Part shown: one piece after another, positions 1-37,299 of the stretch
Numbering within the stretch: the stretch's first letter is position 1
Layout: the number at the start of each line of letters is the position of its first letter
Origin: an uncultured Acidimicrobiia bacterium
Lineage (GTDB): Bacteria; Actinomycetota; Acidimicrobiia; Acidimicrobiales; JACDCH01
Length of the DNA stretch: 64,000 nucleotides
Assembly: GCA_963840695.1 (NCBI GenBank)
Contig: CAWIZW010000012.1
Location: 86,010-150,009 of the forward strand
Reading direction: 5' to 3'
Program-made: the position numbers and the translations under genes
Notes under the pieces: model-generated
Seen by the model: the letters and a program-made list of their open reading frames with translations, nothing else
Told to the model about the DNA's origin: nothing
Database searches by the model: none

Positions 1-1060
1 GCCCGACAGCCGCTTGAGGGTCGCCTCGGCCTCGGCGCGGATCCGAGCGAGGAGGTCGGCGACGGTCGGCACCTCGTCGACGACGCCGGTCACCTGCCCC
101 GTGGGCAGGATCCCGACCTCCGGGTCTGCCGTCGACCATCGTCGCCTTGATGAGCATCGGCGCGTTGGCCGCCAGGGCGACCTGGCTCCACGTCAGGTCC
201 TGGTTCCGCTTCATCGCCAGACCCTCACGGACGAGGTCGCCGAGCGGCGTGCCGGTCTCCTTGCGGAACCGCAGCGCCGCGGTCAGGGCCCGTGGGAACC
301 GGAGCAGGCGCGGGCTGCGCTCGATCCGGTCGACGACCTCGGTGCGGATGACCCGTTGCGGCGCGCCGTCGATGGCGGTGGTGACGACGGTGTCGGTCGG
401 GGTGGCGGCGAGGTACCGCGCCTTGACCACGTCCGGGACGCGGCTCTCCTGGGTCAGCAGGAACCTCGTGCCCATCGCCACGCCGTCGGCGCCGTAGGCG
501 AGGGCGGCGACGAGGCCGCGGCCGTCGAAGAACCCGCCGGCGGCGAGGACGGGGATCTCGGCGCCGACGGCGTCGACGACCTCGGGCAGCAGCAGCGTCG
601 TGGGTACGGCGCCGGTGTGGCCGCCGCCCTCGCCGCCCTGCGCGATCACGGCGTCGACGCCCATGGCGAGGACCTTCTCGGCGTGGCGGCGGGCGCCGAC
701 GGTCGGCATCACCAGCACGCCGGCGTCGTGGCACCGAGCCACGGCGTCGGCCGTCGGCGCCCCGGCGAAGCTGACGAGCTTCACACCCTCGCCGACGACG
801 AACGCGACGCGCTCGGCGAGGTCGGGCTGATCGGCGCGGAAGTTGACGCCGAAGGGCCGGTCGGTGCGGTCGCGGACCTCACCCACCTGCTGGCGCAGCT
901 GCTCGGGCGTCATGGTGACGGCGGCCAGGATCCCGAAGCCGCCGGCCGCGCTCGTCGCCGCCGTCAGCCGGGCGCCGGACACCCAGCCCATCCCCGTCTG
1001 CACGACCGGGAGCTCGCACCCCACGAGCTCGCAGAACCGGGTGCGCAACGGATCTGACAC
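1..1060 (-). pseudogene. Nitronate monooxygenase (NMO / 2-nitropropane dioxygenase family); 3' end runs off the window; one apparent 1-nt insertion near 131
   Basis: Own minus-strand translation from GTG 1060-1058 gives VSDPLRTRFCELVGCELPVVQTGMGWVSG...IAQGGEGGGHTG...AMGTRFLLTQES. The frame breaks after ...KATMVDG (ggcAgaccc, ~131). The conserved tail DPEVGILPTGQVTGVVDEVPTVADLL continues in another frame to the window edge. It is not in the ORF track because no stop lies inside the window. Confidence 0.85.
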
Positions 1061-1068
1061 GCCGTCAG
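1054..1068. promoter_or_regulatory. Candidate operator, CTGAC-N5-GTCAG palindrome (ctgacacgccgtcag)
   Basis: Both 5-nt arms are perfect. The site overlaps the GTG start (1060-1058) of the NMO gene. It belongs to a ten-site family in this window. Confidence 0.55.
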
Positions 1069-1253
1069 GTTAGAGCCGGACCTCGCGACCACGAAGTCCA
1101 ACCGTCGGGTCGGGGGTTCGATCCTCCTGGTCCATCGCGCGCACGCCCCGCGCCACCCCGAGGAGTTGATCAGAGCGCAGAGGGCTGTCTTCCGGTTTCA
1201 CAACCGGAGCGCACGGGCACGACTCGGCGCGTTGTCGAGCCTGGGAGGCACAC

Positions 1254-1919
1254 ATGACTGAGACATGGACGGGCGGGGCCGGCGACACCGGCACCGAGAC
1301 GGGGATGGCCTCGGAGGTGGCGGGCGCCGTCAAGGAACACGCCTCAGAAGTCGCGTCCGCCGGCGGCGCCGGCGTGCAACGCGTCGCCTCGACCGCGAGG
1401 GACGAGACATCCGCCGTCCTCGGCGACGTGAAGTCCCAGGCGCGCCGGGTCGTCGGTGAGGCGACGACACAGCTGCGTCAGCAGGGCGACGAGCAGCTCC
1501 ACCGTCTCGCCGGCACCATCGGCGAGCTGTCCCACGAGCTACGGCGCATGAGCGATGCCGGAGGCGACGGGCCGGCGGCCGGGTTCGCCAGCGAGGCGGC
1601 TTCGTTCCTCGATGGCTTCGGTGGACGCCTGGTCGACGGTGGCCTCGACGGAACCGTGGCCGAGGTGAAGCGCTTCGCCCGGAACCGTCCGGTCGTGTTC
1701 CTGGCGGCGGCCGTCGGCGCCGGATTCCTGGCCGGCCGTCTCGTGCGCAACGTCGACACCGAGCGTCTGACCGGGTCCCGGAACGACGTGGAGACGCCGT
1801 CCCTGCCCGTGGCGACGCCGACGCCGACGCCGACGCCGACGCTGTCCGGTGCTGCTTCGAGCCCCGGCGCCCTCCCGGCGAGCCCTGCTGGCCACCGTCC
1901 CGACGCCGGGATCGGCTGA
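1254..1919 (+). CDS. Hypothetical protein with C-terminal membrane anchor; first gene of a conserved actinobacterial three-gene set
   Basis: ORF track, 221 aa. GGGAGG lies 6 nt upstream of the ATG. It has a hydrophobic segment VVFLAAAVGAGFLAGRL and a low-complexity TPTPTPTP tail. Its stop overlaps the next start (ATGA-type, 1919). Confidence 0.6.
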   Translation: MTETWTGGAGDTGTETGMASEVAGAVKEHASEVASAGGAGVQRVASTARDETSAVLGDVKSQARRVVGEATTQLRQQGDEQLHRLAGTIGELSHELRRMSDAGGDGPAAGFASEAASFLDGFGGRLVDGGLDGTVAEVKRFARNRPVVFLAAAVGAGFLAGRLVRNVDTERLTGSRNDVETPSLPVATPTPTPTPTLSGAASSPGALPASPAGHRPDAGIG

Positions 1920-2335
1920 TGGCGGTGGATCGGGTCGACGATCCGACCCGCCCGCTCGAGCCCGACACGTCGCTGCCGGAGCTCCTCTCGCGTCTGTCCT
2001 CCGATTTCGGCGAGCTCGTGTCGACGCAGGTCGAGCTGGCCAAGGTCGAGATCAAGGAGGAAATCGCCCGGGCCGGGAAGGGCGCCGGCCTCCTCGGCGG
2101 CGGCGCCTTCGTCGGCTACCTCGCAGTGATCCTGCTCTCGTTCGCCGCCGCCTGGGGCTTGGCCGAGATCATGCCGGAAGGCTTCGCCTTCCTGATCGTC
2201 GGCGCCGTGTACGCGGTCGTCGCCATCGTCCTCCTGAGGACCGGGCGTGAGCAGATGCGTTCCGTGCAGGCCGTGCCGGAGACGACCGAAACCTTGAAGG
2301 AGGATGTCCAGTGGGCCAAACAACAGGTGAGCTGA
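1919..2335 (+). CDS. Phage-holin-family (Holin-X / DUF1469-like) membrane protein
   Basis: ORF track, 138 aa: ...LSSDFGELVSTQVELAKVEIKEE...GAGLLGGGAFVGYLAVILLSFAAAWGLAE...FLIVGAVYAVVAIVLL. The architecture, an amphipathic helix followed by two TM helices, is typical of the family. Confidence 0.7.
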   Translation: MAVDRVDDPTRPLEPDTSLPELLSRLSSDFGELVSTQVELAKVEIKEEIARAGKGAGLLGGGAFVGYLAVILLSFAAAWGLAEIMPEGFAFLIVGAVYAVVAIVLLRTGREQMRSVQAVPETTETLKEDVQWAKQQVS

Positions 2336-35675: not shown

Positions 35676-36725
35676 TTCAGCCGGCCTCGAGGTCGATGAC
35701 GAAGGCGGCGCCGCCGCCGGGGACGTCCTCGTAGTGGACCGTCCCACCCATGCGGTGCACGAGGCGGTCGACGATGGCGAGGCCGAGGCCTGAGGCCTCC
35801 GGGTGGCGCTGCGGCCCCCGCCGGAACGGCTGGAACAGCGACCGCTTGGCCTCCGTCCGGCACGCCCTGCCCGTCGTCGGCGACGCGGACCTCGACCGTG
35901 CCGACCTCGGACGCCGTCGCCTGCACCGTCACCGTCGGCCCGCCGTAGCGCCAGGCGTTGGTCAGGAGGTTCACCAGCACCCGGTCGAGCGCGGCACGGT
36001 CGGCGAGGGCCGAGAGCCCTGCCGGTATGCCGCCGAGGTCGAGCGTGCGGCCCTCGGGCACCGGGGCGTTGACGGCGGCCTCGGCGACGGCGGCGGCCAG
36101 GTCGACGGGCTCGAGCAACGACGCGGACGGGCCGAGCGTCGGCCATGGCGAGGTCGACGAGGTTCGTGGTCAGCGAGCGCAGCCGCGCCGCTTGGCGGTG
36201 CAGGACGTCGAGGACCGCACGCCGATCGTCCCCCTCGACGAACTCCAGCGCCTGGACGGCCTGGGCGATGGCGGCCGCCGGCGTGCGCAGCTCGTGGGCG
36301 GCGTTGGCGATGAAGTCGGTGAGCGTCGCCGCGGCGCCGTGCTCGTCGGTCGTGTCGATGCTGACGCCGAACACCCGCGCCGCCCGCCCTTCGGGGCCGG
36401 CGAACACCCGCCCGCGGCTCCGCGTCCAGCGGATCGCGCCGTCGGACGCGCGGTGGAAGCGGTGGTCGAAGCTGTAGTCGCCGCACCGTTCGATGGCGGC
36501 GCCGATGGTGCGCTCGATCATGTCGCGGTCCTCGGGGTGGACCATCTCGAGCCACGCCTCGTACGGCACGTCGGTGCCCGGCTCGAGCCCGTACAGGCGG
36601 CACTGGCCGTCGGACCACGCCGCCGTCGCCGGGGCGAGGCCGTAGTCCCAGAAACCGACGTCGGCCAGCTGCTCGAGGTCGGCGAGCTGCCGGCGGACGG
36701 TGGCCAGCTCCTCGTCGCCCGCCAT
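35676..36725 (-). pseudogene. Cytoplasmic PAS-domain sensor histidine kinase; at least 3 frame switches (~36135, ~35840)
   Basis: MAGDEELATVRRQLADLEQLADVGFWDY...MVHPEDRDMIERTI...RFHRASDGAIRWTRSRG (PAS) ...FIANAAHELRTPAAAI (H-box) lies in ORF 34761..36794. LEPVDLAAAVAEA...VLVNLLTNAWRYGGPTVTV...VEVRVADDGQGVP is in ORF 35534..36118. The tail GLGLAIVDRLVHRMGGTVHYEDVPGGGAAFVIDLEAG is in a third frame. Confidence 0.75.
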
Positions 36726-36738
36726 GGTCGGCGACGCT

Positions 36739-37261
36739 AGGACGTCGGAGGACTTCACGGAGCGGTGGATCAGGTTCATCCTCGCGGTGAGCACGAGCTC
36801 GCCCGGCGTGGTCGCGGTACTCGGTCTCGGTGACGAGGAAGGTCATCGTGCGCTCGCCGGCGGGCTTCTCGTAGAGGTCGACGACCTTGCCCTCGCTCGT
36901 GCAGGCGTCTCGCCCACGACGACCGGTCGGTGGTAGGTGAACTCCTGCTCGCCGTGCAGCACCATGCCGCCCTTCGCCATCAGCCCGCCGATGATCTCCA
37001 TCGTCGGGTTGGTCGCCGGGCGTGCGCGTCGGCCGGCTGGGCCTCGGGGAACGCGCCCCAGTGCCCGGCGGCGGAGAAGAAGTAGGTCGGCGGCACCGGG
37101 ATGCCGTCGAAGCCGGCGGCGGCGGCCGCGTCGGCGCCGCTGGTAGATCGGGCTGGTCTCGGTGACCGCCTCGGCGAACTGGGTGACCGGACCCCGCTCG
37201 ATGGTCGACCGTCGACCGCCCGGTCGACCGGCCGACGACCTCGTCGCGGGTGACTGCCCAT
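36739..37261 (-). pseudogene. MaoC-N / FAS1-like dehydratase domain protein (hotdog fold), at least 6 frame switches; 3' end uncertain
   Basis: Pieces: AVTRDEVVGR, IERGPVTQFAEAVTETSPIY, AAAAGFDGIPVPPTYFFSAAGHWGAFPE (ORF 36980..37261), TNPTMEIIGGLMAKGGMVLHGEQEFTYHRPVVVGE, EGKVVDLYEKPAGERTMTFLVTETEYRDHAG and ELVLTARMNLIHR. Confidence 0.6.
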
Positions 37262-37283
37262 CTGTCCCTCCAGGTGCTAGAAA

Positions 37284-37299
37284 CTGACACGGACGTCAG
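37284..37299. promoter_or_regulatory. Candidate operator, CTGAC-N6-GTCAG (ctgacacggacgtcag)
   Basis: Perfect arms, in the 60-nt divergent region between the dehydratase start (37261) and the SDR ATG (37322). Confidence 0.55.

Follow-up and report, generated by a model that had tools for sequence, protein, structure and literature searches.

Ten copies of the palindrome CTGAC-N5/6-GTCAG are located at 5' gene ends in a 64,000-nucleotide stretch of contig CAWIZW010000012.1 from an uncultured Acidimicrobiia bacterium (below, the window, numbered from its first letter). What reads these palindromes, and why does their spacer alternate between five and six nucleotides? An earlier interpretation of the same DNA, made from the letters alone (below, the sequence-only reading), had proposed a single TetR-type regulon and had suggested that the alternation may in part reflect indels in the sequence. 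According to our analysis, the ten palindromes are two operator classes that share their arms and differ in spacer, flanks, and gene sets, and the two classes apparently are read by two different TetR-family regulators, so that the single regulon has to be replaced by two. We propose, with a probability of about three in four for the whole reading, that two TetR-family repressors, denoted here TetR1 and TetR2, would recognize the same 5-bp half-site CTGAC/GTCAG at two spacings, TetR1 binding class A (N5) and TetR2 binding class B (N6).

Ten Palindromes Form Two Operator Classes

A pattern scan of the window found all ten sites at the coordinates given by the sequence-only reading: eight are perfect in both arms (1054, 5919, 6759, 11583, 15921, 26198, 32421, and 37284), and two have one mismatch, 13111 (GTGAC) and 15944 (CTGAT). 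As had been claimed on the basis of a rough estimate (about 0.1 perfect matches expected), this is far above chance: dinucleotide-preserving shuffles yield 0.23 matches on average and two at most, with none of the 100 shuffles reaching eight. A frame model of the window based on codon positions places nine out of ten sites in non-coding segments, and the tenth, non-intergenic site, 6759, lies at the 3' end of a short-chain dehydrogenase/reductase (SDR) gene, about 20 nt before the ATG of a DUF35 gene. The assignment of the sites to 5' gene ends stands. Beyond 38 kb of the window, the pattern scan found no perfect palindrome, in agreement with an earlier inspection by eye; the one-mismatch matches at 41861 and 62661 are at chance level, and matrix scores in this part are at most 12 bits vs. 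18–37 bits for the ten sites.

The class A operator has a 15-bp core, CTGAC-N5-GTCAG, and the extended consensus nATCTGACGgnCCGTCAGATn; in the window, it is represented by sites 1054, 5919, 6759, 13111, 15921, 15944, and probably also 11583. The class B operator has a 16-bp core, CTGAC-N6-GTCAG, and the extended consensus AACCTGACaCgcGtGTCAGGTT, with sites 26198, 32421, and 37284. The flanks differ as well, being AT...AT in class A and ACC...GGT in class B. Matrices built for the two classes separate the window sites, with 18–29 bits for six class A sites and 30–37 bits for three class B sites, the next-best scores in the window being 12.3 bits for class A and, for true background matches, 7.1 bits for class B. 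The classes also occupy different parts of the window: class A sites are found at 1–16 kb around the gene of TetR1, and class B sites at 26–38 kb beside the gene of TetR2.

Class A Operator and TetR1

The proposed class A repressor, TetR1, is encoded on the minus strand at 12423..13100 by a gene that is heavily frameshifted here; its product consists of the TetR_N and TetR_C_38 domains, the latter having a Pfam match in the window. The closest homologues of the stitched protein are 82% identical and come mostly from metagenome-assembled genomes (MAGs) of Acidimicrobiia, with TetR_N and TetR_C_38 present in all of them; homologues at 63–82% identity carry PF00440 and PF19352, and more than 5000 homologues were found in total.

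We collected TetR1 loci from one genome per species, obtaining at least 80 loci (about 38 from Acidimicrobiia and 42 from Streptomyces) with 10 kb on either side, 1.46 Mb in total. These loci contain 141 perfect N5 sites, 138 of which are intergenic, non-coding DNA constituting 17%, along with one N6 and two N4 sites, while five scrambled control palindromes have zero to two matches each. One-mismatch N5 sites are strongly intergenic too, and the N4 and N6 variants are at background.

Site 13111..13125 (one mismatch, GTGAC; 18.4 bits), about 10 nt upstream of TetR1, is a candidate autoregulatory site. The autoregulation geometry that the sequence-only reading had seen in it is repeated at the TetR1 starts of relatives. 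In all 42 Streptomyces loci, an essentially invariant one-mismatch site, GGTAAGCTGACGGCATGACAG, spans the TetR ATG, with the -10-like TAAGCT in its left flank; in Acidimicrobiia (about 41 loci), the site upstream of the TetR1 orthologue is perfect in ten cases and has one mismatch in four, two of the ten perfect sites (L082 and L083) being the same sequence in two assemblies. The Streptomyces arrangement (loci L032–L080, approximately 9977–9991, with the TetR match starting from 10001) deserves a description of its own: in the essentially invariant GGTAAGCTGACGGCATGACAGGACAAG, the operator spacer includes the TetR ATG, and TAAGCT is found 6 nt upstream; together, these features imply a leaderless, autorepressed TetR1 transcript.

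Other class A sites are also retained at orthologous promoters. Two contigs (L081, L082), supplemented by a short-read copy (L083), are syntenic with the window, and N5 sites are found at the promoters orthologous to 1054, 5919, 6759, 11583, 13111, and 15921/15944 in L002, L081, L082, and L083. Site 1054..1068 (perfect, 28.0 bits) is at the 5' end of an NMO/IpdC-like gene on the minus strand, divergent from a plus-strand gene starting at about 1283, and its N5 orthologue is beside the NMO gene at L081 20237. Site 5919..5933 (perfect, 23.0 bits) separates the operon of enoyl-CoA hydratase (ECH) and CoA-transferase A/B on the minus strand from a divergent SDR gene on the plus strand, and has orthologues in the ECH/SDR intergenic region at L002 13303 (one mismatch) and L081 16272. 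Site 6759..6773 (perfect, 25.7 bits), about 20 nt upstream of the plus-strand DUF35 and thiolase-like genes, corresponds to an N5 site 23 nt upstream of DUF35 at L082 15824. Site 11583..11598, N6 as read, with perfect arms and probably class A, is upstream of an operon of acyl-CoA dehydrogenase (ACAD) and SDR on the minus strand.

The remaining two sites form a tandem between a luciferase-like monooxygenase (LLM) gene on the minus strand and a plus-strand operon of an "amidohydrolase" of the amidohydrolase-related dinuclear oxygenase (ARO) type and an AMP-ligase: 15921..15935 is perfect (28.7 bits), and 15944..15958 has one mismatch, CTGAT (20.0 bits), and directly abuts the -10-like TACGAT. 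The pair recurs in L082 (4944, 4972), where the orthologue of 15944 is perfect and is preceded by the same TACGAT, and single N5 sites precede the gene orthologous to the ARO-type "amidohydrolase" of 15921 in 28 Acidimicrobiia loci. Start to start, the tandem spacing is 23 nt in the window (15921–15958) and 28 nt in L082 (4944–4986), which may be a true difference or may result from deletions in the noisy sequence of the window. In Streptomyces, orthologues of N6-bearing window genes (NDP-forming acyl-CoA synthetase, thiolase-like) have tandem N5 sites instead (L048 18862/18886, L053 17810/17834, L066 18750/18774, L063 1163/1190, and others).

Throughout the TetR1 loci, the first gene downstream of an N5 site encodes TetR itself in 55 cases, a thiolase-like protein in 53, ACAD in 32, AMP-ligase in 29, an Amidohydro_2 protein in 28, isochorismatase in 20, NDP-forming acyl-CoA synthetase in 11, LLM and flavin monooxygenase in eight each, SDR in seven, DUF35 in six, ECH in three, and CoA-transferase III in two. 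The candidate class A targets in the window are the TetR1 promoter, the NMO gene, the ECH and CoA-transferase A/B (IpdAB-like) operon, the SDR gene, the DUF35 and thiolase-like genes, the ACAD–SDR operon, the LLM gene, and the operon of ARO-type oxygenase and AMP-ligase.

Class B Operator and TetR2

All three class B sites of the window are perfect. Site 26198..26213, a 16-bp palindrome scoring 36.7 bits, is 13 nt upstream of the plus-strand gene of NDP-forming acyl-CoA synthetase and is followed by the -10-like TAACGT; 32421..32436 (31.0 bits) lies between a two-gene operon of ARO-type "amidohydrolases" on the minus strand and a divergent amidohydrolase gene on the plus strand; and 37284..37299 (30.3 bits) lies between a MaoC-type dehydratase gene on the minus strand and an operon of SDR and thiolase-like genes on the plus strand. 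The synthetase and thiolase operon, the two-gene operon of ARO-type oxygenases, and the divergent MaoC and SDR–thiolase pair are the candidate class B targets.

Relatives of the gene at 31300–32407 were used as seeds to retrieve at least 80 loci from metagenome contigs of the Joint Genome Institute (JGI), mostly short-read assemblies; with 10 kb on either side, the loci amount to 603 kb. They contain 64 perfect N6 sites vs. eight N5, and 60 out of 64 N6 sites are intergenic. In 53 cases among these loci, the gene that comes first after an N6 site (with one mismatch at most) is a member of the orthologue cluster of the 31300–32407 gene, N6 sites precede synthetases orthologous to that of 26198 (L087, L091, L096, L097, L105, L110, L164, and L168), and the divergent pair orthologous to that of 37284 also has N6 (L087, L096, L097, L115, L122, L125, L164–L166, L168, and L171). 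Comparison of intergenic with coding DNA, run on loci chosen by homology, and footprinting in relatives, where N5 and N6 are kept at orthologous promoters, both bear out the claim of the sequence-only reading that operator-type palindromes mark the promoters of acyl-CoA catabolic genes.

TetR2, a second TetR-family gene and the candidate class B repressor, is located on the minus strand at 39440..40028; its homologues carry PF00440 and some also PF17918. Eight homologues at 55–72% identity were used as seeds. In all eight loci, AMP-ligase and ACAD genes are divergent from TetR, and an SDR–(ECH)–thiolase operon ends at or near it; in most, MaoC is divergent from this operon, and the more complete loci add CoA-transferase III, Amidohydro_2, DUF35 with thiolase, NDP-forming synthetase, and a pair of P450 and MFS genes. 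Each of these loci has up to six perfect N6 sites and almost no N5, and in all eight an N6-type site, perfect or with one mismatch, is upstream of the SDR–thiolase operon near TetR2. Each class co-localizes with one TetR type: a TetR2-type gene is found inside the class B cluster in the eight seeded loci, L087, L110, L125, and the window, and in the 600 kb of N6 loci, searched with tblastn and a profile of the TetR helix-turn-helix (HTH) domain, TetR2-like genes (L087, L110, L125) are the only TetR type detected, without any TetR1 homologue. Other regulators beside N6 sites were considered and rejected, as the first downstream genes all encode enzymes or transporters and the HTH profile and tblastn yield only TetR2-like genes. 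Since it is the only regulator type conserved inside the class B cluster, TetR2 is the best candidate for binding class B, an assignment that we somewhat favor.

TetR1 and TetR2 are 35% identical over the N-terminal 113 residues and have recognition helices TSPATFYQYF and TSHGTFYLYF, respectively; this similarity would be compatible with a shared half-site, without proving it.

Several observations weigh against the pairing of two repressors with two classes. In about a half of Acidimicrobiia TetR1 loci, the 300 nt preceding the gene contain no good site; in some of these loci, TetR1 may be co-transcribed with an upstream isochorismatase gene. A class B site upstream of TetR2 was found neither in the window nor in the loci of its homologues; moreover, a search between TetR2 and the divergent AMP-ligase gene yielded neither a class B site that could serve autoregulation nor a conserved palindrome of any kind. 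Several long N6 loci (L091, L096, L097, L104, L105, and L140–L163) lack a TetR gene within 10 kb, and hence the class B regulator could be encoded elsewhere. The loci were picked by homology to window genes, so that enrichment there is not a genome-wide test. Finally, the binding of TetR1 to class A and of TetR2 to class B is a prediction from sequence, and the pairing of protein with class, repression as the mode of action, and, above all, the ligand are what we infer.

These considerations leave room for an alternative, in which the two classes are real and some regulator different from TetR2 reads class B, either a closer TetR1 paralogue or an unrelated factor encoded elsewhere, with TetR2 controlling only the divergent AMP-ligase/ACAD operon via a different operator. 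The missing N6 site upstream of TetR2 and the long N6 loci devoid of a nearby TetR gene agree with it, and a close TetR1 paralogue would most readily account for an identical half-site, TetR2 being only 35% identical to TetR1 and having a different C-terminal domain. Still, the conservation of TetR2-type genes as the only regulators in the class B cluster and the lack of TetR1 homologues in the N6 loci make this alternative the less likely one, and we retain TetR2 as the candidate class B repressor.

Some further features of the class B loci were observed. In L140–L163, a more distant lineage (Amidohydro_2 homologue 44–47% identical) with DUF35, ECH, thiolase-like, and DUF2889 genes nearby, an N6 site with different flanks, TAAGCTGACACGAAAGTCAGAGAA, is upstream of the homologous oxygenase gene. 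A pyruvate kinase gene adjoins MaoC inside the class B cluster both in the window (34128–35396, minus strand) and in a related 1.7-Mb contig (L164, 13291–14724), being an odd but retained neighbor. Downstream of site 37284, after MaoC and on the same strand, the window encodes a histidine kinase of the PAS/HisKA/HATPase type (35685–36700, minus strand; domains tentatively assigned by visual inspection of the translation), with no partner response regulator noticed nearby. At 24686, ahead of a P450 gene, there is a weak palindrome resembling class B, which is unsupported as an inverted repeat or as a site.

Spacer Length and Sequence Quality

Could the six-nucleotide spacers be mere sequencing errors? 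The window has about 72% G + C, and frameshifts defeat simple calling of open reading frames, which was therefore replaced by a frame-switching Viterbi path on codon-position G + C. The path contains 66 direct same-strand frame switches; the worst indel stretches of the assembly are 24–40 kb and 0–16 kb, and the TetR1 gene alone (12423–13100, about 680 nt) requires approximately ten frame changes to be read through, in full agreement with the indel problem noticed earlier. Genes are similarly broken in the closest relatives, L081 and L082, which are contigs in samples ERZ250395xx of the European Nucleotide Archive (ENA); the broken genes of these two contigs, together with contig names of the form contig_NNNNN, suggest a long-read metagenome source. 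Pfam domains of the stitched proteins agree with the gene classes assigned by the sequence-only reading, namely, NMO, a CoA-transferase A/B pair with enoyl-CoA hydratase, SDRs, DUF35 with thiolase-like proteins, ACAD, LLM, Amidohydro_2 proteins, AMP-ligases, NDP-forming acyl-CoA synthetase, MaoC dehydratase, and two TetR genes.

Given this quality, all ten sites could be N5 sites of one regulon with one regulator, the four N6 copies being produced by 1-nt insertion errors. In favor of such an artefact, loci around TetR1 relatives have essentially no N6 sites and the orthologue of 11583 is N5, and for 11583 this explanation probably holds. This site has class A-type flanks, its orthologue, CTGACACACCGTCAG, is N5 both in L082 and in short-read L083, the window having one inserted base, and after deletion of one base it scores 27.9 bits as class A vs. 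20.6 bits as class B. Hence, 11583 probably belongs to class A, the additional nucleotide being due to an error of assembly or to a genuine insertion.

For 26198, 32421, and 37284 the artefact was dropped, as short-read contigs have N6 at the orthologous promoters, prevailing over N5 in the counts given above; moreover, N6 sites have a flank consensus of their own, and, deprived of one base, the class B sites drop to 25–26 bits as class A vs. 30–37 bits as class B. The 5/6 alternation is thus biology, except perhaps at 11583, and its attribution to indels survives for that site only; a single regulon is refuted for the three class B sites, and as an account of all ten it is highly improbable. 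Least probable of all is that the palindromes, instead of being protein operators, act as hairpins of RNA or DNA, such as attenuators or leader structures, or belong to a short repeat dispersed in the DNA: a 5-bp stem with a loop of 5–6 nt can be drawn for each site, at a 5' gene end, but such a stem is very weak, the arms are invariant while the spacers are free to vary, with no compensatory arm changes across two classes of Actinomycetota, the sites are in divergent promoter regions, overlapping -10 hexamers in either orientation, and the spacing is strictly 5 or 6 depending on the gene set, which is typical of dimer binding.

Promoter Geometry and Proposed Mechanism

The position of the TANNNT hexamer relative to the operator is strongly non-random: among oriented sites, it is found at offset -4 (TAnnCT, where CT is common with CTGAC) in 34% of those of class A in Streptomyces and 23% of those of class B, and at offset -6 in 12% of those of class A in Acidimicrobiia. 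For example, upstream of Amidohydro_2 genes of many Acidimicrobiia, the -10 hexamer abuts the operator, with TAGAAT, TACAAT, or TACGAT immediately followed by CTGAC, and at some promoters, such as 26198 of the window, the operator is immediately upstream of the -10 hexamer serving a near-leaderless start. Some promoters have tandem sites, spaced by 23 nt in the window (15921/15944), 28 nt in L082, and 27 nt in Streptomyces.

In the mechanism that we propose, the operator of either class would cover the 3' end of the -10 hexamer together with the presumed start of transcription, and, since it overlaps both, a bound TetR dimer would block RNA polymerase; this overlap fits repression by promoter occlusion, for which it is the standard geometry. 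A pathway intermediate, most plausibly an acyl-CoA thioester, would then release the repressor, and the genes would be de-repressed. Induction by acyl-CoA is suggested by analogy, the models being KstR, KstR2, FadR, and PaaR.

Gene Content and Likely Pathway

The genes annotated in the sequence-only reading as amidohydrolases (Pfam Amidohydro_2; 15970–17181 on the plus strand, 29901–31182 and 31300–32407 on the minus strand) encode homologues of DitZ (PDB 8uyr, E 2e-58) and PtmU3. DitZ is a diterpenoid hydroxylase, and the signature motifs of amidohydrolase-related dinuclear oxygenases are D-x-H and D-x-P-H-x-D (PMC13154177). Both motifs are present in the products of 15970–17181 and 29901–31182 (DDH with DYPHTD or DYPHSD), and the product of 31300–32407 has DAH and, at the second motif, DYPHHG, deviating at the last position. 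Judging by homology and by the motifs in two of the three, these proteins probably are dinuclear oxygenases of the DitZ/PtmU3 type, that is, C–H hydroxylases rather than hydrolases.

The hydratase (NF005925, EchA20-like) and one SDR (NF005893) pass the NCBIfam equivalog cut-offs, the model names being generic. Taken together, the CoA ligases, the IpdAB-like transferase, hydratases, Ltp/DUF35 pairs, ACADs, P450, flavin and luciferase-type monooxygenases, and the oxygenases point to catabolism of alicyclic carboxylates, and the gene set probably degrades such compounds, terpenoid- or steroid-like, as CoA thioesters. A strictly "steroid" label for this gene set is unproven.

Comparison With Known Regulators

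Among the closest known systems is the KstR2 (Rv3557c) regulon of mycobacteria and rhodococci, which controls degradation of steroid rings C/D (HIP). Similarly to the systems described here, several of its promoters have a short palindromic operator for a repressor of the TetR family; the CoA-dependent gene set of the window, with its IpdAB-like pair, EchA20-like hydratase, NMO/IpdC-like reductase, SDRs, ACADs, and acyl-CoA ligase, may correspond to that of this regulon; and a second TetR regulon for neighboring steps exists alongside, as with KstR and KstR2. The differences are that the C-terminal domain of TetR1 is TetR_C_38 and that the class A regulon is found also in Streptomyces and includes ARO-type oxygenases. 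The parallel in gene content drawn by the sequence-only reading may hold at the level of enzyme classes: against the HIP set (ipdAB, ipdC, echA20, fadD3, fadE30, and others), the window has a CoA_trans pair, ECH, NMO, SDRs, ACADs, and AMP-ligase, and no model names any of them as an Ipd enzyme.

The operators also differ, as had been observed for the half-site. The KstR2 consensus AnCAAGnnCTTGnT, as quoted in the sequence-only reading, is absent from the CTGAC-bearing promoters; its single match in the window, ACCAAGGCCTTGGT at 6558–6571, is inside an SDR coding region, and, at least one match being found in 22% of shuffles, we judge it to be due to chance. For the KstR operator, TnnAACnnGTTnnA, the window yielded no match. 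KstR2, structures of which exist in the PDB, is not among the PDB matches of TetR1 (E ≤ 0.01) or of the TetR1 family profile (E ≤ 0.1). KstR (Rv3574), the regulator of cholesterol catabolism, is likewise a TetR-family repressor of many catabolic promoters, and it responds to an acyl-CoA. TetR2 aligns with KstR over the full length at low significance (PDB 5aqc, E 1e-6) and scores 28 bits with the NCBIfam KstR model NF033703 (cut-off 280), which has no match to TetR1; neither TetR passes an NCBIfam equivalog cut-off. Motif scans, NCBIfam, and PDB searches thus rule out the identity of TetR1 or TetR2 with KstR or KstR2.

Both TetRs match many solved TetR structures. The closest one to TetR1 is EthR (Rv3855), with the TetR fold and a near full-length match (profile E 6e-8), but the similarity is remote (35 bits). 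As a multimer, EthR occupies a long operator and regulates ethA, being unrelated to the CTGAC motif or to the gene set considered here.

The Streptomyces orthologues of TetR1 are about 55% identical to it; two genes away is the gene for a PQQ-repeat Ser/Thr kinase of 799 aa, with a glyoxalase-like gene in between. The latter, adjoining the AfsK-like kinase, is divergent from TetR1 and shares its intergenic region; we take it to be kbpA, in which case the TetR1 orthologue might also touch AfsK signaling. In S. coelicolor, the TetR gene close to afsK (SCO4423) is SCO4421, which is reported to be developmentally regulated and to have no mutant phenotype, no operator, regulon, or function having been reported (PMC3878966). 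The Streptomyces TetR1 orthologue probable from gene order only is SCO4421, for which the proposed operator and regulon would be new. A literature search by motif strings, PF19352/TetR_C_38, and SCO4420–4422 found no description of either operator, in accordance with the earlier suggestion of an undescribed regulon.

Significance

While TetR–operator systems of this kind are well known, the pair of operators and their regulons would be new. They provide a concrete candidate operator and regulon for a very widespread, uncharacterized TetR_C_38 family, found from Acidimicrobiia to Streptomyces, and outline a co-regulated set for the largely uncultured Acidimicrobiia, comprising CoA ligases, DitZ/PtmU3-type dinuclear oxygenases, IpdAB-like ring-opening transferases, and Ltp/DUF35 thiolases. 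With the N5/N6 pair, nature offers a clean case in which to study how dimeric TetR repressors distinguish operators by spacing, and a caution for motif scans, in which two regulons may pass for one variable-gap motif.

A bolder interpretation, which we offer tentatively and hold to be possible rather than probable, is that the two TetR repressors of Acidimicrobiia, only distantly related in sequence, share the CTGAC half-site and are kept apart solely by the 1-bp difference in spacing (N5/N6) and two flanking bases, splitting a catabolic super-regulon that a single N5 regulator holds in Streptomyces. The regulon may thus be undivided in Streptomyces and split between two regulators in Acidimicrobiia; if true, operator spacing would have brought about both regulatory insulation and regulon fission in a natural system.

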